Shown here one piece after another: positions 1-8,027 of a stretch of 8,027 bases of DNA. Location of the stretch: the IMG/VR virus record IMGVR_UViG_2537562091_000006; one strand, written 5' to 3'. The DNA is from a virus (lineage: Duplodnaviria; Heunggongvirae; Uroviricota; Caudoviricetes). A program made the translations under genes and the position numbers. Every line of letters starts with the position of its first letter. Position 1 is the first letter of the stretch. Under the pieces are notes generated by a model. The model was not told the origin of the DNA. It saw nothing but the letters and a program-made list of their open reading frames with translations, and made no database searches.

Positions 1-144
1 TTAATTTCGATTATTTTTCCCGGATGGAAAATTCTTAGAAACCGATCACATACAGCTGCATTTATTAAGGTTATCATCCGTTTCGCTGAAAAACATAACC
101 CATAAAATGCTAGCTGTACCAGGAACCACCTCCTTAGCCTGTGT

Positions 145-171
145 AATCTCCCTTACACGGGCTTATTTTTT
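145..171. other. Phage attachment-site core, P2 type (attP or prophage att junction)
   Basis: Plus strand reads AATCTCCCTTACACGGGCTTATTTTTT; its reverse complement AAAAAATAAGCCCGTGTAAGGGAGATT matches the 27-nt P2 att core as I remember it. Position immediately beyond ogr fits P2 organisation (ogr-att). Recalled from memory, not searched. Confidence 0.55.
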
Positions 172-235
172 ACGCGTAATACAATGAAATAAAAGGATTT
201 ATTTCTGGTCACGTCCACACATTGACCACATCGAC

Positions 236-259
236 AAAAAAGCCCCTCGACTGAGGGGC
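236..259 (-). terminator. Rho-independent terminator downstream of ogr
   Basis: Minus strand reads GCCCCTC-AGTC-GAGGGGC followed by TTTTTT (stem 242-248 / 253-259, T-tract 236-241), starting 14 nt after the ogr stop codon. On the plus strand no U-tract follows the stem, so it acts on the minus strand. Confidence 0.7.
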
Positions 260-272
260 TTCCTGTTTGTAA

Positions 273-491
273 TTACATCCACATAATTTGCTGCCCTGAC
301 GGCAACGGGTGCGGTCTAACGGCGTGGACTTCTCCCGGCTTCACGATGTATCGCTGTACCGACTCATAAGTGATGAACGTGGCGCTGCAATTCACGTTCT
401 GACACTGGTGATAACGCTCTTTTGTCGTGTCAGTGATATAGCGACTTGTACGCGCATGTGCGGCATGCTGGCATAAAGGACAATGAAACAT
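273..491 (-). CDS. ogr: Ogr late transcription activator, zinc-finger protein (72 aa)
   Basis: Translation MFHCPLCQHAAHARTSRYITDTTKERYHQCQNVNCSATF... has the Cys4 motif C-x2-C-x22-C-x4-C and the 72-aa length of P2 Ogr. Start chosen at the internal Met (codon 45 of the 116-aa track ORF) because GGAAGAGG lies about 8 nt upstream and the longer ORF would overlap D by 50 nt. Confidence 0.85.
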   Translation of the reverse strand: MFHCPLCQHAAHARTSRYITDTTKERYHQCQNVNCSATFITYESVQRYIVKPGEVHAVRPHPLPSGQQIMWM

Positions 492-525
492 CGCGAGCAC
501 CTCTTCCGGTTTTGTTGATGGTGCC

Positions 526-554
526 ATTTTAGTTAATTTATCCTTATAAAACAA
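526..554 (-). promoter_or_regulatory. Putative sigma70 promoter for ogr
   Basis: Minus strand TTGTTT (549-554) - 17 nt - TAAAAT (526-531) in the AT-rich 82-bp D-ogr gap, about 35 nt upstream of the ogr ATG. Prediction by eye only. Confidence 0.3.
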
Positions 555-573
555 ACAGATAAAATAAAACAGA

Positions 574-1737
574 TCACTCATTATCTTCTGTTTCGTACTC
601 CACATCAGAAAGCCTGACCTCAAGCTCTAAGGACGTCGTGAAGCCGCTATTATTCAGAAAATGTGTCACCTTAGTGATTGTCCAGTTCTGCTCGTCTATG
701 ACGCGCTTAAAGCCTGACACTTTGACCGGCGTTTCCGTGTAAATATCTGCACGACCGGTAGCCAGGATGATGGAGAACTCCGCAACGCCCCGTTGCAGTT
801 TATCCCACTTCGCCTGAGCGGCGCGCATGGCCTGCGCTTTTGTGGCATATACCGTAGTCAGGGCAAAAACGTTGTCAGCTTCACCGGCCATGTATTCACC
901 TTCGCGCGCTTCAGGTACTTTTGGCGCTTTCTTCTGCGTGACTGGTTTTGCTTTCGGGTGCTCCAGTGCACGCAGGTGTTTTTCTTTCTTTTTGCGTTTC
1001 AGTTTTACCTTCTGCTTTTGTGGTTTCGGGTCTTTGGTGTGTAACCACTTTGCCGTTACGCCGGTATAGGCTCCACGGTCAGCAATCGCAAAATGATGAC
1101 GGTCGCCGTCGCTGCGGGTGATGGTAATCTGCGGGATTTTTTTACCGCTGGCCGTCACCCCCTGCCCCGCTTTGAGAAACAGCAGTTTTCCCATTTTTAC
1201 CGACACCTCGCCGCCGTTGCGTTCAGCAAGACGGGTCAGGAATTTCAAATCGGACTCCTGCGACTGGTCGATGTGCGGGATTTTAATTCCGGCCAGTGAC
1301 GGAGCGACACTGGCTTCCAGCTTATTACGGGAGGCTATCGCCTCAACAATCGCACCGAGCGTGGTGTCATGCCATGAGCCTTCACGGCGGGAATTGAGCG
1401 TCCCGCGAAAATCTGCACTCCGGGCGCGGATGGTGACCACATCCGGTGCGCCCCGGTGTTCAACCTCATCAACGGTAAATTTCCCTTTGCATACCAGGGC
1501 AAAACCTTTCCAGCCGATATACACCGTCAGGACAGCGCCACGAACCGGCAGCCCGACCTGCCCGTCGGCATCGTTCAGTTCAATATCAAGCTGGTCAGCC
1601 TCAAAGCCCCGGTTATCCGTCAGGGTCATGCTCATCAGACGGTCGCTGATATTGCCGGTAATATCCCTGCTGTCGAGCATCAGCATGTAATCCGGCGTCA
1701 GCGTACTGCCTGCATCAAATGTCAGCGCATCCAGCAT
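574..1737 (-). CDS. D: Tail protein D (phage late control D family, 387 aa)
   Basis: 387-aa ORF in the position and with the length of P2 gpD, between U and ogr. Start ATG overlaps the U stop (TAATG). Contains a Lys-rich low-complexity stretch at residues ~235-278. Confidence 0.85.
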   Translation of the reverse strand: MLDALTFDAGSTLTPDYMLMLDSRDITGNISDRLMSMTLTDNRGFEADQLDIELNDADGQVGLPVRGAVLTVYIGWKGFALVCKGKFTVDEVEHRGAPDVVTIRARSADFRGTLNSRREGSWHDTTLGAIVEAIASRNKLEASVAPSLAGIKIPHIDQSQESDLKFLTRLAERNGGEVSVKMGKLLFLKAGQGVTASGKKIPQITITRSDGDRHHFAIADRGAYTGVTAKWLHTKDPKPQKQKVKLKRKKKEKHLRALEHPKAKPVTQKKAPKVPEAREGEYMAGEADNVFALTTVYATKAQAMRAAQAKWDKLQRGVAEFSIILATGRADIYTETPVKVSGFKRVIDEQNWTITKVTHFLNNSGFTTSLELEVRLSDVEYETEDNE

Positions 1738-2216
1738 TATCCCGCCTCCGTCATACCCGTGAATCTGGTCGCCATACTGCCAGCCTTACCGATGAGCGAC
1801 TCCGCCTGTTTACCGATATCGCCATAAAGCGCGGCCAGTGATTCATCCACGCGGGTGAGCGACAGCGTAAAATCAATTTTCCGGGGTGTGCCGTCTGCAA
1901 AGAAAATACTCCCTGTTTCACTCACCCTGCTGATGACATACATGCCGTAAATCATGCCGGAGCCATCCAGCAACGGCCACGCCCGGCCTTCCTCTGCCAT
2001 CAGTCTGAGCGTGGTCATCGTCAGCTTGCCGCCGGTCAGTTCGGGATAAAGCACACCGGCAAGCGTGATGTTTTCCTCGCCAACACCGAGAAACTGAAAG
2101 GCATCCCGTTTACCGATACGGGAATTTGACGGCCAGCGATAATCTGATTCACGCTGCATGGTCTGGTGTGGCAGCGTCTGGCGCATAAAAACAAACATAC
2201 CTAACGCGAGCATCAT
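1737..2216 (-). CDS. U: Tail protein U (159 aa)
   Basis: 159-aa ORF matching P2 gpU in length and position. AAGGAGGTG Shine-Dalgarno sits just upstream of the start at 2216. Stop overlaps the D start. Confidence 0.85.
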   Translation of the reverse strand: MMLALGMFVFMRQTLPHQTMQRESDYRWPSNSRIGKRDAFQFLGVGEENITLAGVLYPELTGGKLTMTTLRLMAEEGRAWPLLDGSGMIYGMYVISRVSETGSIFFADGTPRKIDFTLSLTRVDESLAALYGDIGKQAESLIGKAGSMATRFTGMTEAG

Positions 2217-2230
2217 TTTTCGTCACCTCC

Positions 2231-4678
2231 TTAACCGTCATGCATCATGCTGGCACGGGCGCGCGCACGTTTATCCCGCTCGTATTTTTCGAGCGCATCC
2301 TGTAACTGGCGGTCAAGCTGTGTCCCCGGCGCAGTACCACCCGTCAGGCTGATGTGATATTCGTTTTTACTCTGGTCCACATAAGAGCGGCCAGCCGGTG
2401 CCGTGACCGGCTGATAAGCCTGATAGCCTGCATAAGAGCTGGTCGCCGGAATATAACCACCGGTGCCATACGTGGCGGCATGAGTTCTGGCGGCGGTCTG
2501 GTCAAGTGTGTCTGACTCTTTGTTGATGACCCCGAGCTTTTCCAGTACCCAGTCAATACCGCTGCGCAGTTTGTTGAACGCATTAAGCGGCAGCATCAGC
2601 GCGTCAGCCAGTGCCTGCCCGAACATGACGCCCGTGTCACGGCAACGGTTCAGGGTGTCCTGTGTGGCTTTGACCGGGGCAATCAGGTTTTTAAACCACT
2701 GCCACGCGGCCTGTAACTTTTCGCCCAGCCAGTCAAACACCGGTTTCAGTGGCGTGAACAGCTCCCCCACCGGCGCAAATGCCGCTTTCAGCCCTTCCAC
2801 CACACCGCCAAAGAATGCGCTGACAGGCTCCCAGTATTTACGGATAAGCAACGCCCCGGCGACAATGGCGGCCACCACGGCCACAACCGGCCAGCTAATC
2901 GCCCCGATGGCCGTCATAACAGCACTGCCAACCGTCATGAAGATTGCCCCCATTGCGCCTGCTGCCGCGATAATGGCATTAATGCCGGTGATAACCGGCC
3001 ATGCTACAAGACCAATGGCACCGATGATGCCAATAAGCGCCAGCGCGCCACCGACAATGAGGCCGATGGTTGACGCCAGTGATTTGTTTTTCTGGATCCA
3101 GCCGTCGAGTTTTAACACATACTTTGTGGCCGTCTGAGTGAGTTTACGCAGTGCGCCTTCCTGCTGGTCAAACAGGTCTGTCCCCACCGCCTCATAAGCG
3201 GACTGAAACTCCTTAAAGTCACCGCCGAGGTTGTCCTGCATGATATTTACCAGCTCGGCGGTCTTCCCGTCTGAGGCTTTAAACGCAGCGGTCAGTTTGT
3301 CCAGCTTTCCGGTTGAGGCGGCAGTCATCAGCACGGCGGCGGCTGAGCTGGCCTCCTCCCCGAAAATGGTTTTCATGTATTCAGCCTGCTGGGCAGTACC
3401 GAGCCGATTTTTCTCAAAACTGGCCTGCATTTCTTTCAGAATGGTAAATATTGGTCGGGTGTTTCCCTTGCTGTCTGAGGTTTTCACACCAAGCTCTTTC
3501 AGTGCATCCCATGCTTTTCCCGTCGGTGCCTGCAGGCGGCTTAACACGGCACGGCTTCCCGTCCCCGCCATTGAACCGGTAATTTTTGCATCATGCAGCG
3601 CCCCGACCATTGCGGCGGTTTCTTCAATGCTGACACCGGCATTTTTTGCCACAGGTGCGGCATAGGTCAGCGCATCGCTCATGCCGTCAAAATCGGCGGC
3701 GGTTTTGTTCATCGTCATGGAGAGAACATCCCCGATATGAGCGACCTTATCGTTTGAAAGCTGAAAGGCGGATTTCATCCCCATCAACAGGGCGGCGTTT
3801 TCTTCCATCGTGCGACGGTTCGCCAGCGCCATATTCAGCGTGACCGGCGTTGCCGCCTGAATGGCATCAACATCCCCACCGGCTTTCGCAATGATAATCT
3901 GCGCACCGGCTGCATCATCCGCCGAGGCGGCGGTGTTGTCGCCGAGCTGGCGCGCCTGTTTGCGTAATGCGGCCATTTCGGCGGAGTCTTTTGCCGCACC
4001 GAGCACAGCCTGCAATTCTGAGTTTTTCTGCGCAAACTCATAACCGGGCATCAGCAGCTTAACTCCGGCCATCGTTCCCGCAGCAGCTATCCCCACACCG
4101 GCAGCGCCCACTGAGGCCATATTTCCGGCCAGTTCCTTTCCGGCCTGATAACGCTGTTTTACTGCGTTAAGTTTTGCCTGTTGTGCACTGACACGCGCCA
4201 GTGCGTCACGCTGACGGTTAAGCTGTGCGGTGGTTTCACTGATACGGTTTTTCAGTCCCTGCTCATCATGTGCAAGATTGCGGGTATTAATTCCCACAGC
4301 GGCCAGTTCCCGCTGCTGGCGTTTAACGGAGTCCGTCAGGCGGTTATATTTCGCCTGTAAGTCCTCCGCCGCACGCTTTGCGGATTCCAGCACTTTCGCC
4401 TGAGCACGGGTCGGACGTTCGGTGTTTTTAAACTGTGTGGCAAGGGCTTCGGCCTCCTGCCGTGCCTTTTCAAGTGCATGACCAGTCACGGCGAGCTGTG
4501 CACTGGTCTTGCGAAATCCCTCAATACGGGATGCCTGACCGTTCAGCTCGCGCAGTGATTTTTGTGTTTCCCGGATATCCCCCGACAGCGATTTGCTCGC
4601 TGTGCGGATGGATTTAAACGGGCGGGATGCCTGGTCAACAGCCCTGAGCAATACCTGTAATTTTACATTGTTACTCAT
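2231..4678 (-). CDS. T: Tail tape measure protein T (815 aa)
   Basis: 815-aa ORF, the P2 gpT length. N-terminal ~190 residues are Q/R/A/E/L-rich (coiled-coil-like), followed by a long Gly/Ala/Ile-rich hydrophobic block (residues ~534-616). ATG at 4676-4678 overlaps the E+E' stop. Lies directly after the frameshifted chaperone pair, the typical tape-measure position. Confidence 0.9.
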   Translation of the reverse strand: MSNNVKLQVLLRAVDQASRPFKSIRTASKSLSGDIRETQKSLRELNGQASRIEGFRKTSAQLAVTGHALEKARQEAEALATQFKNTERPTRAQAKVLESAKRAAEDLQAKYNRLTDSVKRQQRELAAVGINTRNLAHDEQGLKNRISETTAQLNRQRDALARVSAQQAKLNAVKQRYQAGKELAGNMASVGAAGVGIAAAGTMAGVKLLMPGYEFAQKNSELQAVLGAAKDSAEMAALRKQARQLGDNTAASADDAAGAQIIIAKAGGDVDAIQAATPVTLNMALANRRTMEENAALLMGMKSAFQLSNDKVAHIGDVLSMTMNKTAADFDGMSDALTYAAPVAKNAGVSIEETAAMVGALHDAKITGSMAGTGSRAVLSRLQAPTGKAWDALKELGVKTSDSKGNTRPIFTILKEMQASFEKNRLGTAQQAEYMKTIFGEEASSAAAVLMTAASTGKLDKLTAAFKASDGKTAELVNIMQDNLGGDFKEFQSAYEAVGTDLFDQQEGALRKLTQTATKYVLKLDGWIQKNKSLASTIGLIVGGALALIGIIGAIGLVAWPVITGINAIIAAAGAMGAIFMTVGSAVMTAIGAISWPVVAVVAAIVAGALLIRKYWEPVSAFFGGVVEGLKAAFAPVGELFTPLKPVFDWLGEKLQAAWQWFKNLIAPVKATQDTLNRCRDTGVMFGQALADALMLPLNAFNKLRSGIDWVLEKLGVINKESDTLDQTAARTHAATYGTGGYIPATSSYAGYQAYQPVTAPAGRSYVDQSKNEYHISLTGGTAPGTQLDRQLQDALEKYERDKRARARASMMHDG

Positions 4679-5098
4679 TCGTGTTTCCGCTTCGCCGGAG
4701 CGCCTTTTCGCGCCATGTGATGAGTTCGGTCAGGCTCATGGGATACAGTTCTGATGGCGGCCAGTGAAATATCACTGCCACATCCGCCATCAGGTCATCG
4801 ACCGAGAGATTTTTCGGAAACGTCACTGCACCGAGTTCGGCGACAAAAAACCGACCACCTTACCGGCCAGCGCCACAAGGTCAGGCAGTTCCAGTGCGGC
4901 GACTTCCTGCTCGGTCAGCATCGGTGCAGTCATGCGCGGCAGCACCTTAATCAGTGCATCGACTTCGGAGTTCGCGACCGCAGCCAGACTGACACCGCGC
5001 AGCGTCCCGGCGTTAGGTTTCATCAGCGTGACCTGTTCGATAACCTGCTCACCACGTTTGACCGGATTGTCCAGGGTAATGACGTTTTCTTTGTTCAT
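4671..5098 (-). CDS. Tail assembly chaperone E+E' (142 aa, made by -1 programmed frameshift at 4844-4850)
   Basis: After a -1 shift on T TTT TTG the minus strand reads ...VAELGAVTFPKNLSVDDLMADVAVIFHWPPSELYPMSLTELITWREKALRRSGNTNE* with stop TAA at 4671-4673, overlapping the T start. 85 + 57 = 142 aa, the P2 E+E' length. The -1 frame is open for exactly this stretch. Confidence 0.8.
4823..5098 (-). CDS. E: Tail assembly chaperone E (91 aa, zero-frame product)
   Basis: 91-aa ORF ending ...AGKVVGFLSPNSVQ*, located between FII and T as in P2. Contains the slippery heptamer near its 3' end. Confidence 0.85.
   Translation of the reverse strand: MNKENVITLDNPVKRGEQVIEQVTLMKPNAGTLRGVSLAAVANSEVDALIKVLPRMTAPMLTEQEVAALELPDLVALAGKVVGFLSPNSVQ
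4844..4850 (-). other. -1 programmed ribosomal frameshift slippery heptamer (T TTT TTG)
   Basis: Minus strand GGT TTT TTG in the E zero frame (plus strand CAAAAAA at 4844-4850), 8 codons before the E stop. It is exactly where the E' reading frame opens. Confidence 0.8.
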
Positions 5099-5126
5099 GG
5101 TTTTCTCACTTCTGAATCGGGGTTAA

Positions 5127-5147
5127 CCGGTCAGCCAGGCTGACCGG
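5127..5147 (-). promoter_or_regulatory. GC-rich perfect hairpin in the FII-E intergenic region (possible attenuator or mRNA processing/stability element)
   Basis: CCGGTCAGCC-A-GGCTGACCGG is a perfect 10-bp inverted repeat in the 56-bp gap between the FII stop (5155) and the E start (5098). No U-tract follows on the transcribed strand, so it is not a canonical intrinsic terminator. Confidence 0.4.
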
Positions 5148-5154
5148 ATGAAAA

Positions 5155-5673
5155 TCACAGGCCGATATTGCGGCGGTGTTGCTCCAGCCGGTCGACGCCG
5201 TTCACCTTCTCAATCATGTTGATGGTGTCAATTTCGACCAGCTCCTTACCGTCCATCGTCAGCCGGAAATAGGTGCAGACCACGGAGATTTTCGACTCGG
5301 TGTCTTCTCCCTGTTTACCCTCGCCGGTGTCGATTTCTTTCTGACGTCCACGCATGACCACCTCGACGGCCACCGTTTCGCCGGTATCGTCACGCTGGTA
5401 AGAGCCTGCAAAACGAATCGGTACGGCATCCACACCGGTTGCGGCGTAAAGTTCCCAGATAACCGAATCCGGGAAGCCCCCGAGCGACCACTCCATTGAC
5501 AGCGCATCGTCATCAAGGCCGAGGTCTACCGGTGCGCTGCCGTTCATCCCCGCACCGCGATAGTTTTCGAGCTTACGGGTCAGTTTTGGCAGCGTGACGG
5601 ACTTTGCAACGCCCTGATAGCTGTAGCCGTTCAGAAAGACGTTCATTAACTTGAGTTTGCGCGGCATTGCCAT
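5155..5673 (-). CDS. FII: Tail tube protein FII (172 aa)
   Basis: 172-aa ORF directly downstream of the sheath gene, with the P2 gpFII length. AAGGAG Shine-Dalgarno precedes the ATG at 5673. Confidence 0.85.
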   Translation of the reverse strand: MAMPRKLKLMNVFLNGYSYQGVAKSVTLPKLTRKLENYRGAGMNGSAPVDLGLDDDALSMEWSLGGFPDSVIWELYAATGVDAVPIRFAGSYQRDDTGETVAVEVVMRGRQKEIDTGEGKQGEDTESKISVVCTYFRLTMDGKELVEIDTINMIEKVNGVDRLEQHRRNIGL

Positions 5674-5685
5674 CGGTCAGGCTCC

Positions 5686-6876
5686 TTAATTGCTGTTAAC
5701 CGAGGTGACCAGATTTGCCAGGTATTTATCGGTAATACGCTGGCGCAGGGTCAGGTTTTCAAGAGGAGGCACCGGTGTATAGTCGTAGTCGATATACAGT
5801 TTTCCGGCCTTGAGGGTTTCCGCATCGTTGGATTCTTCGCTGAACCAGCAGGTCGCATCCACGATATAGCCGTTTGTTTTCAGCTCACGGAATTTGGCAT
5901 TGATGCCGTCAACAATGTCGCGAATCAGCGTTGCGGTGATGGGCTTGTCCACCGCCCACATGTGCGCCTCAGCCATCGTGTCGGCCAGCACCTGCGCGGT
6001 GCGGGTGTAGTTTTCAAAGAGGAACAGCGGGTCATCAGAGCAGGTACGGTTACCCCAGAAGCGGAAACCGTCGCGGCGAATCAGCGTTGTGACGCCTGAC
6101 TCGTTAAGCAGGTCAGCATCGGTGCCGGACTCCTGCAAATCCCAGAATACAGATGCGCTGATACCGGTAGCACCGTTTACCCCGACGTTGGACAGCGTTT
6201 TATGCCAGCCCTGCTCCTGGTCGATTTTAGCGCGCAGACCCAGCGCACGGGCAGTGGCATACGCGGTGGCGGTGGTACTGGTGACCGTATCCCATGCGAG
6301 GAAATCCGGCCAGATGACCATCAGCTCACGCTGGCTGAAATTCTGGCGGTAGGCTTTCACCTCGGAAATGGTCTTACAGCCCCATGCGCTGATATATCCG
6401 AAAGCGCGCAGCTTCTGACAGACGGATGCCAGTGCAACAGCCACCTCTTTGGTATCCAGTCCCGGCACACCGAGAATACGCGGTTTAACACCGGTTACCG
6501 ACTCCGCCGCCAGCAGGGCTTTCAGTCCGGTGTACTGACCGTTTTCGTCGGTGGTGCCGATGATATTGGAAACGGTCTGCGCGAGTTTCGTTTCCTCGTC
6601 ATCACCGGTGCCGTCTTCCACGCGCACGACAACGGTGACCGGTTTTGACTGGTCAGCGATGGCCTGCAACGATGCCGCCAGCGTGCCTTTTTTACCGGCC
6701 TTTGCAATTGCGCTCTGCACATTGGTAATCAGCACAGGTTTATTGAGGGGGAAGGTTTCCGCATCCGCATCGCTGGCCGTGCAGACCATGCCGACAATGG
6801 CAGTGGATACGGTGGAAATGACGCGGGTGCCGTCGTTAATCTCCAGCACCTGCACGCCGTGATGATAGTCACTCAT
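5686..6876 (-). CDS. FI: Contractile tail sheath protein FI (396 aa)
   Basis: 396-aa ORF (P2 gpFI length) at the head of the FI-FII-E-T-U-D operon. GGAG lies about 10 nt upstream of the ATG. Confidence 0.85.
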   Translation of the reverse strand: MSDYHHGVQVLEINDGTRVISTVSTAIVGMVCTASDADAETFPLNKPVLITNVQSAIAKAGKKGTLAASLQAIADQSKPVTVVVRVEDGTGDDEETKLAQTVSNIIGTTDENGQYTGLKALLAAESVTGVKPRILGVPGLDTKEVAVALASVCQKLRAFGYISAWGCKTISEVKAYRQNFSQRELMVIWPDFLAWDTVTSTTATAYATARALGLRAKIDQEQGWHKTLSNVGVNGATGISASVFWDLQESGTDADLLNESGVTTLIRRDGFRFWGNRTCSDDPLFLFENYTRTAQVLADTMAEAHMWAVDKPITATLIRDIVDGINAKFRELKTNGYIVDATCWFSEESNDAETLKAGKLYIDYDYTPVPPLENLTLRQRITDKYLANLVTSVNSN

Positions 6877-6935
6877 CCGTTTAACTCCGTGGTTAATGGG
6901 TGAGTGATATTTTCAGTTGTGCCGGAGATGTCAGG

Positions 6936-7529
6936 CTATTTGTCCCGGTTGGCTAAGGGATGACACAATTTATTTTTTGTCACGGAGGCGGGGAATTTTT
7001 TATAGAGCGTGGACAGGCCAATATCAAAAATCAGTGCCACGCGTTGACGTGATTCCCCTGCAGCCAGCAAACGCCCGGCCTGCTCCCACTCACTCGCGGT
7101 GAGTTTCGGACGTCTGCCACCAATACGACCTTTGGCTCTGGCCGCTTCCAGTCCGGCGCGTGTCCGCTCGACAATGAGTTCTCGTTCCATTTCGGCCAGG
7201 GCACCCATCACATGAAAGAAAAAACGCCCCATCGGCGTGCTGGTATCAATAGCATCCGTCAGGCTGCGAAAATTAACGCCGCGTTCGCGCAGCTCCTCAA
7301 CCAGAATGACCAGATGCCGCATACTACGCCCCAGCCGGTCCAGCTTCCAGACTACCAGTGTATCCCCCTCCGATAATGTCCTGAGCAGTTTTTTCAGTCC
7401 CGGCCTGTCGGACTTCGTGCCGCTGATTTTGTCCTCAAAAATCAGCTCACATCCTGCGCACTCCAGCGCGTTACGCTGCAATTCCGTATTCTGGTCATTT
7501 GTTGACACGCGTACATAGCCAATAAGCAT
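6936..7529 (-). CDS. Serine DNA invertase, Hin/Gin/Cin/Pin family (site-specific recombinase, resolvase/invertase fold)
   Basis: N-terminus MLIGYVRVSTNDQNTELQRNAL carries the catalytic-Ser motif, followed by DTLVVWKLDRLGRS, MGRFFFHVMGALAEMERELIVERT and a C-terminal HTH (GLSTLYKKF); about 197 aa. Strong resemblance to Hin/Gin. Start taken at the second ATG (7529), which has GGGGG about 6 nt upstream; the track ORF starts 2 codons earlier at 7535. Confidence 0.85.
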   Translation of the reverse strand: MLIGYVRVSTNDQNTELQRNALECAGCELIFEDKISGTKSDRPGLKKLLRTLSEGDTLVVWKLDRLGRSMRHLVILVEELRERGVNFRSLTDAIDTSTPMGRFFFHVMGALAEMERELIVERTRAGLEAARAKGRIGGRRPKLTASEWEQAGRLLAAGESRQRVALIFDIGLSTLYKKFPASVTKNKLCHPLANRDK

Positions 7530-7556
7530 GAGCATCCCCCTGAATAAAAACCGGAG

Positions 7557-8027
7557 ATGATGCCAGTTGCCCGTTATCTCTGCATTTTCATAAACGTTGG
7601 TTTGGGAGAAGGTTCGGCATTACCCGTTGGCGTGCCTGTTCCGTGGCCTTCCGCCACTCCGCCAACAGGCTGGCTGAAATGCAACGGGGCGGCTTTTTCT
7701 GCTGAAGAATACCCGGAACTGGCAAAGGTTTACCCGACAAATAAATTGCCTGATTTACGCGGTGAGTTTATTAGGGGCTGGGATGACGGGCGTGGTATTG
7801 ATGCTGTACGTGCCTTGCTAAGTCTTCAGAATGGAGGAGTGGAATCACACACCCACCAAGGGCAGCTCTTCAGAGTTAGTGATTATCGTACAAAAGAATA
7901 CCAGCATCAGAAGTTATGGGGAAGAGGATATATTGCAAGCCTGACGCCGGGTGCTGATAGCCCACTTGATTTTGATGATTATTCTGTATCTTCTAATCCA
8001 AATGATATTTTGTCGGAATCAGAGTAA
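7557..8027 (+). CDS. Tail-fibre C-terminal variable segment (Sv'-like alternative exon of an invertible segment), probably silent in this orientation
   Basis: Translation contains LPVGVPVPWPSATPPTGWLKCNGAAFSAEEYPELAKVYP...PDLRGEFIRGWDDGRGIDAVRALLSLQNGGVESHTHQ, the conserved junction motif of Mu S / P1 S / lambda Stf-type tail-fibre C-terminal domains. The crossover site sits within its first codons, it has no convincing RBS, and it is on the strand opposite the late genes. The annotated ATG at 7557 is probably not a true start. Confidence 0.65.
   Translation: MMPVARYLCIFINVGLGEGSALPVGVPVPWPSATPPTGWLKCNGAAFSAEEYPELAKVYPTNKLPDLRGEFIRGWDDGRGIDAVRALLSLQNGGVESHTHQGQLFRVSDYRTKEYQHQKLWGRGYIASLTPGADSPLDFDDYSVSSNPNDILSESE
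7585..7610. other. 26-bp invertase crossover site (hix/gix/cix-like)
   Basis: TTTTCATAAACG TT GGTTTGGGAGAA: two imperfect inverted 12-bp half-sites (TTnTCnnAAAC) around a central TT/AA dinucleotide. Close to the gix/hix/cix sequences as I recall them. Lies 56 bp upstream of the invertase start and inside the 5' end of the tail-fibre segment ORF. Confidence 0.7.

Follow-up and report, generated by a model that had tools for sequence, protein, structure and literature searches.

A probable Pin-type invertible tail-fibre cassette between the sheath and fibre genes of a P2-like Escherichia coli prophage

The closest relative of the cassette analysed here is the Pin system of e14 in E. coli K-12, which comprises pinE and the P segment with stfP, tfaP, tfaE and stfE. 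In e14, a defective lambdoid element, the silent tip, the site and the invertase gene lie in a divergent order (stfE, site, pinE), and the invertible segment measures about 1.8 kb (PMC12529663). The G segment of phage Mu is 3 kb long. The constant part of the Mu fibre is encoded outside this segment and two tip-plus-chaperone modules inside; its edge reads S′v, gixR, gin, and gin is located at the genome end beside com/mom. In phage P1, with its C segment of 4.2 kb, the cin gene reads towards cixL and overlaps the site with its 3′ end, so that invertase and silent tip are co-directional, not divergent. Invertible fibre cassettes are known from P2-like prophages, too. Goldberg et al. detected inversion by sequencing in two P2-like prophages of EPEC E2348/69, and the variants of a three-site locus (inversions of about 1.8 and 2.2 kb) were confirmed by PCR (PMC4272514). 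Fin of Salmonella Fels-2 is cited in PMC4272514 and PMC12529663 as a further published invertible fibre cassette. According to the iLund4u study, the Z/fun hotspot of P2-like phages often encodes a DNA invertase, with the adjacent genes inverted (bioRxiv 10.1101/2024.10.15.618418). Likewise, the record of phage pro483 places a "DNA invertase" between the sheath and tail-fibre genes, as do several other Peduovirus/P2-like records. The EPEC E2348/69 and Fels-2 cassettes are likened to the present locus by their published description.

The stretch of DNA that we analysed (the window, 8,027 nt) is 100% identical to positions 3711–11737 (reversed) of locus L011 on the E. coli scaffold GL872249.1 (GCA_000191015.1), to which a look-up of its gpD protein had led. 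Logan contigs matching the window stem from the runs SRR031805 and SRR035424, which probably are the source runs. Its minus-strand genes ogr, D, U, T, E/E′, FII and FI represent the late/tail end of a P2-type prophage, which is integrated at the cyaR/ogrK locus; the order FI-FII-E-T-U-D-ogr is common to the window and P2. The right edge of the window very probably constitutes the invertase-proximal end of a Pin-type (e14 P-segment-like) invertible tail-fibre cassette of this P2-like (Peduovirus) E. coli prophage (Table 1). In the source scaffold, a gap of 852 N begins 16 nt past the window end and masks the tfa/tfa′ portion of the segment, save for the 5′ end of one tfa, which is visible beyond the gap and is followed by the minus-strand H gene and then by I, J and W.

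Table 1. Coordinates of the cassette features and of the neighbouring sheath gene within the window
Feature	Position	Strand	Remarks
FI tail sheath gene	5686..6876	-	Pfam Phage_sheath_1, Phage_sheath_1C and Gp18_domIII_N; conserved gene to the left of the cassette
DNA invertase gene, 197 aa, Pin/Gin/Cin type serine recombinase	6936..7529	-	Mechanical ORF starts further upstream, at ATG 7535
Homologue of the P2 pF activator-binding region upstream of FI	6945..6975	-	P2 annotation and alignment
Stretch homologous to the P1 cin recombinational enhancer (putative enhancer)	7440..7511	-	Invertase gene nt 19-90
Invertase-proximal 26-bp crossover site	7585..7610		Central dinucleotide 7597-7598
Presumably silent alternative fibre tip (Hv′, collar domain)	7611..8027	+	Reads inwards from the site

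With e14 the cassette shares a DNA identity of 87–88% over the invertase gene, the site and the start of the tip, as well as the divergent order of tip, site and invertase and the approximate size of the segment. It differs from e14 in being located between H and FI of a P2-type tail module that appears to be complete, in having a P2 H-like instead of a StfP-like constant fibre part, and in its second tip, which is gp53-like and has a different C-terminal end. In addition, the invertase bears a 13-residue C-terminal tail that runs into the pF promoter region. The order and orientation known from Mu are found here as well, with a spacer of about 56–67 bp, and so is the partition into a constant fibre part outside and two tip-plus-chaperone modules inside the segment. 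However, the core of gix is GA and not AA, the tips encoded here are not detectably similar to Mu S or S′, and the Mu invertase gene does not lie between fibre and sheath genes. The inner half-sites of P1 (TTCTCTTAAACC) and its AA core are nearly the same as in the present cassette, and the P1 enhancer is annotated in the homologous place, the 5′ end of cin. The first-pass annotation had recognized the architecture of the Mu G and P1 C segments; the divergent layout indeed corresponds to that of Mu and e14, but not to that of P1, where cin reads towards cixL. The layout of pro483 is identical (sheath, DNA invertase, tail fibre, tfa, tfa, tail fibre), with 95–97% DNA identity up to the tip. Its collar tip departs after about 80 aa, and only the tip alleles differ. 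The insertion of such a switch into a P2-type tail module had also been put forward as worth documenting, but here the pro483 annotation, the EPEC analysis and the iLund4u study take precedence. The switch is real, very common and already described, hence not new: among 5,426 complete E. coli genomes, about 3,500 have a match to some or all of the query, which in 171 genomes includes at least the beginning of the collar tip.

The recombinase encoded on the minus strand next to FI is, as had been proposed, a serine invertase of the Hin/Gin family. It comprises the Pfam domains Resolvase (residues 5–137, E 2e-52) and HTH_7 (residues 140–183, E 6e-13), and among the solved structures Mu Gin ranks first (3UJ3, E 9e-95; 4M6F, about 1e-94), with residues 1–182 aligned. 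In the public collection, 516 blocks list exactly this 197-aa protein. Resolvases belong to the Pfam family Resolvase as well, and in NCBIfam the protein has matches only far below the cut-offs, none above them that could name it (the fibre and tfa proteins gave none). On these grounds one could take the enzyme for the resolvase of a transposon or plasmid, or for some other, unrelated serine recombinase, that happens to lie beside a fibre fragment. Yet over its full length it is 80–87% identical to the annotated invertases (e14 PinE, 87%; P1 Cin, 81%; Mu Gin, 80%), whereas the gamma-delta/Tn3 resolvases score at about E 1e-33 (as structures, gamma-delta 7e-33 and Tn3 3e-27), far weaker than Gin. 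The alignment further revealed that the catalytic motifs YVRVST (with Ser9) and WKLDRLGRS are the same as in Gin. This also applies to the EWEQAGRLL segment, aligned with Gin and Cin, whose role in Fis contact is taken from work on Hin; there, Gln151, Arg154 and Leu155 together with basic residues of helix B are invertase-specific contacts to Fis and the enhancer (PMC3798978). Helix B is basic in the present protein (LKKLLRT, compared with LKRALKR in Gin and LKKVLRM in Cin).

The true start of the invertase is almost certainly the ATG at 7529 (MLIGYVRVST...). We preferred this codon because Gin, Cin, PinE and the RefSeq-annotated relatives begin there; the first ATG, at 7535, directly adjoins a GGGGGA Shine-Dalgarno run. 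A scan of positions 6800–7700 revealed no sigma-70 consensus promoter for the invertase, and terminator-like matches in the same region are weak and located inside coding sequence. In the P1 record, a recombinational enhancer is annotated at nt 19–90 of cin. The homologous stretch of the present gene is 79% identical to P1 and 76% to Mu, although these values are inseparable from coding constraint. Since the stretch is coding sequence, we consider it a putative Fis-dependent enhancer. Scans for Fis motifs in the 5′ end of the invertase gene yielded several weak candidates, but no unique or decisive pair.

The 26-bp crossover site that had been noted between the invertase and the fibre tip is present 56 bp upstream of the invertase start codon. 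It reads TTTTCATAAACG TT GGTTTGGGAGAA on the plus strand and TTCTCCCAAACC AA CGTTTATGAAAA on the minus strand, and has the form of P1 cix and Mu gix, i.e. 12-bp inverted half-sites that flank a central dinucleotide (cixL, CAATCCTAAACC TT GGTTTAAGAGAA; cixR, TTCTCTTAAACC AA GGTATTGGATAA; gix, TTCCTGTAAACC GA GGTTTTGGATAA). Within the window the site occurs as a single copy, with 0 matches expected (200 shuffles). Its anticipated inverted partner was found in the source scaffold inside the minus-strand H gene, about 1.75 kb to the right (counting the 852-N gap). The partner, TGCTCTTAAACCAAGGTATGCGAGAA, has the same AA/TT core (half-sites TGCTCTTAAACC AA GGTATGCGAGAA). Nine of the ten loci with an identical invertase have this pair as well: the position of the proximal site is unchanged, and H contains another site in inverted orientation. 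For the tenth locus (L022), the region of the proximal site falls into an N gap. Res-like triple sites are absent, and two inverted 26-bp cix-like sites are found instead, which again argues against a resolvase.

In P2, the genes H and G are followed by a terminator, fun(Z) on the opposite strand, the pF activator site and FI. An alignment of the window with P2 showed that homology extends from FI through the pF region to about position 6968 and then ends. The homologue of the pF region, at which the cassette borders on P2-like sequence on the left, overlaps with the final ~13 codons of the invertase gene. Given the gene order of P2 and the stop of homology just past the pF region, the cassette takes the place of P2 fun(Z). 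It is bounded by the fibre genes (G in P2) on one side and by FI on the other, with flanks conserved with P2. This is the position that had been assigned to it from the sequence.

On the other side of the site, the plus-strand ORF at 7557–8027 contains a Phage Tail Collar domain (Pfam, E 2e-15). It had been regarded as a start-less C-terminal domain of a tail fibre. In fact, the whole constant N-terminal part of the fibre is missing, but the ORF has ATGs at 7557 and 7560, 25–28 nt before the site, and the collar tip of the relatives is a RefSeq-annotated CDS. From the first ATG the ORF encodes 156 aa, whereas the gene call of the source uses the second one (155 aa), which is the reason why an exact protein look-up of the 156-aa ORF found nothing. 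Over its first ~80 aa, the tip is nearly identical to e14 StfE. When compared by BLASTP with the C-terminal parts of P2 H, Mu S and Mu S′, the collar tip showed no significant similarity; it is therefore not of the Mu/P2 H type.

The H gene of the source scaffold encodes 378 aa with Phage_tail_fib and a gp53-like C-terminal domain. Its constant part resembles that of P2 H (42% identity, E 8e-48) and is unrelated to e14 StfP. The full cassette could be studied in complete relatives, namely E. coli CUPS04, which is 97.3% identical to the window over positions 184–8024, phage pro483, three further E. coli genomes and several loci with an identical invertase. It has the order invertase (minus strand), collar tip (plus), tfa′ (plus), tfa (minus), H (minus), I, J, W and V. 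Downstream of each tip lies a separate tail-fibre assembly gene (Caudo_TAP domains), and the two modules converge. The product of tfa′ is 89% identical to e14 TfaE. Hence, the two assembly genes that had been predicted to the right are seen in the complete relatives, convergent between the two tips, and the minus-strand constant region of the fibre is represented by H beyond the partner site of the source scaffold.

The constant part of H ends with ...LLAYLGL at the site, and the window's tip continues in the same frame through its own site (...(V)GLGEGSALPVG...). We simulated the inversion in three relatives as an exchange between the central dinucleotides. The product was an uninterrupted, in-frame H of 439–442 aa ending NETRPRN(I/V)AFNYIVRAA, whereas the deposited orientation gives an H of 378–399 aa. 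The simulated junction is not present in CUPS04 as deposited, but it occurs in E. coli JKHS016 with 99.9% identity over all 900 nt, and at 97–98% identity in four more genomes. JKHS016 and CUPS04 have the same protein accessions for the invertase, the sheath, the tape measure and both tfa products. JKHS016 and the simulated inversion product are collinear over 9,900 bp, with no gap; relative to CUPS04, the central 1,832 bp are inverted, with the breakpoints inside the two sites. The half-sites are swapped as predicted, and read TTTTCATAAACG TT GGTTTAAGAGCA on the invertase side and TTCTCCCAAACC AA GGTATGCGAGAA on the H side. This comparison is direct evidence that the segment has been inverted site-specifically at these sites in the prophage lineage. 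The proposed alternation of orientation thus holds at the level of the lineage, where the near-identical CUPS04 and JKHS016 carry opposite orientations, and the strain of the window presumably undergoes the same inversion. That nature has inverted exactly the stretch between the two sites also bears on the resolvase alternative. Considering this CUPS04/JKHS016 inversion, the similarity to Gin, Cin and PinE and the structure of the sites, we rejected a transposon resolvase, for which there is practically no chance left.

For the invertible cassette we propose the following course of events. The invertase would bind the two inverted 26-bp sites, the one upstream of its own gene and the one inside H about 1.8 kb away, and, together with Fis, would assemble on an enhancer situated within the 5′ portion of its coding sequence. 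The dependence on Fis and the enhancer is suggested by analogy to Gin, Cin, Hin and Pin. Both sites would then be cut at the central AA/TT dinucleotide, and the segment, predicted to consist of two tip-plus-chaperone modules in opposite orientation, would be rotated. In the present orientation, the constant part of H would be joined to the gp53-like tip and accompanied by the corresponding Tfa, and the collar tip and the TfaE-like chaperone would be silent. Inversion would fuse the collar tip in frame to the constant part, yielding a 442-aa fibre. Owing to the two alternative in-frame tips, a lysogen population would release virions with either of two receptor-binding tips, and inversion may thereby alter the host range. 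Such a switch explains why prophages of this type differ in the fibre genes beside the invertase, why stand-alone "tail fiber protein" calls appear beside the invertase in RefSeq, and why assembly breaks and frameshifts are frequent in the 1.8-kb stretch. When phages are typed or their host range is predicted, the two tips should be treated as alternative ends of a single H protein; beyond correct annotation, the finding is of little importance.

The similarity to e14 raises another scenario, in which the cassette has been co-opted by the host, and the flipped tip protein shields the cell from other phages instead of setting the host range of the prophage. For the P segment of e14 it has been reported that PinQ-driven inversion yields StfE2, which blocks the adsorption of T2, and that invertases of this family, e.g. 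Fin and Hin, act in trans on each other's segments (PMC12529663). The tip and chaperone of the present cassette are close to e14 StfE and TfaE. However, unlike e14, the locus has a full, intact P2-type late/tail module, the relatives run on to capsid and terminase genes, and a near-identical cassette is present in the deposited phage genome pro483. We therefore regard a defence function as highly unlikely and favour a switch that serves the fibre of the prophage itself.

The main rival of an operative switch concerns the end of the tip ORF in the window. The stop codon at 8025–8027 is not the natural end of the tip when judged from related sequences, as all five closest relatives read through to a 180-aa tip ending NETRPRNIAFNYIVRAA. 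Single-base indels in homopolymers are found at 7897, 7918, 8004 and 8017, and there is an extra T at the very end. They are private to the window sequence (shared by none of the five closest relatives), and all frameshifts fall in the final 130 nt of the tip, after 7.3 kb of coding sequence without a single indel. This accumulation of four private indels and a premature stop could mean that the switch has decayed in this strain. The collar tip would then be a true pseudogene, and the system would either alternate between a working and a truncated fibre or be an unused relic. In line with this, e14 stfE itself is annotated as a pseudogene in K-12, and frameshift calls in the cassette segment are also found in some complete genomes. 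On the other hand, all of the indels reside in homopolymer runs less than 150 nt from the contig end at the N gap, the usual signature of a low-quality consensus. Furthermore, the invertase, both sites, H and all other tail genes of the source scaffold are intact, and four other genomes with an identical invertase have an intact tip of 179–180 aa. In view of the N gap only 16 nt away, we think that the indels are consensus errors at the contig end, and that a decayed tip is unlikely. A combination of both scenarios, in which real frameshifts in the tip bring about a toggle between a working and a crippled fibre together with a StfE2-like block of adsorption, possibly driven in trans by other Pin-family invertases, appears very improbable; if it held, the cassette would be a prophage-borne, phase-variable defence and not only a host-range device. 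If the indels in the tip were real, one of the two states would be a truncated fibre.

Two loci with an invertase identical to that of the window (L019 and L024) share the same flanks and carry differing tip and chaperone alleles within the segment; examples of alleles in loci of this type are tips of 136 or 177 aa, Tfa proteins of 139 aa and an H protein of 508 aa. Since these differing alleles sit beside an identical invertase and between the same flanks, the receptor-binding modules are exchangeable, and the invertase and its crossover sites are the constant frame around them. A third locus (L017:900-3950; GCA_001284525.1) is a three-site variant: it combines the identical 197-aa invertase with crossover sites at 920, 2755 and 3920, and an additional 325-aa Phage_tail_fib fragment is present in its segment. 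This arrangement resembles the shufflon-type module that has been described in EPEC (PMC4272514).

In the complete genomes of E. coli 90-9280 and 90-9281 (L005:5258-7059 and L006:5261-8033), all pseudogene, frameshift or fragment calls fall inside the cassette's four genes, which comprise both tips, the two tfa genes and H, and none was found in the tail genes flanking it. Runs of N also interrupt the cassette stretch in three draft assemblies. Such broken gene calls and gaps are consistent with consensus trouble caused by mixed orientations or by paralogous tfa genes. The right end of the window carries indels of its own (see table), and it is because of these that the collar tip reading frame meets a stop codon at the window end. 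A gap of 852 N in the source scaffold GL872249.1 starts 16 nt further on. The indel-bearing end is thus probably a low-quality contig end within the invertible segment.

Features in the window: invertase tail, indels and sRNA gene
Feature	Window position	Strand	Remark
CyaR/RyeE sRNA gene	83-168	+	Rfam RF00112, 100.7 bits
Invertase C-terminal tail, ~13 residues (...VTKNKLCHPLANRDK)	6936-6975	-	extends past the ends of PinE and Cin
Four one-nucleotide indels in homopolymer runs, plus one additional T	7897-8027 (last 130 nt)		private to the window sequence

At the other side of the invertase gene, the codons for the C-terminal tail of the protein coincide with the conserved activator-site region of the P2 promoter pF upstream of FI. 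The invertase gene and the FI operon run in the same direction with 59 nt between them, and a terminator scan found no terminator-like site between the two. Transcription of the invertase gene could conceivably continue through to the tail operon.

Immediately beyond the prophage, on its ogr side, lies the CyaR/RyeE sRNA gene. Window positions 1-780 show 97.8% identity to the K-12 region trhP-cyaR-ogrK-yegZ (cryptic prophage PR-X), and in the source scaffold the chromosomal DNA flanking the prophage is 99.4% identical to K-12. It follows from these matches that the site which holds an ogrK/D remnant alone in K-12 is occupied here by a full P2-like prophage.
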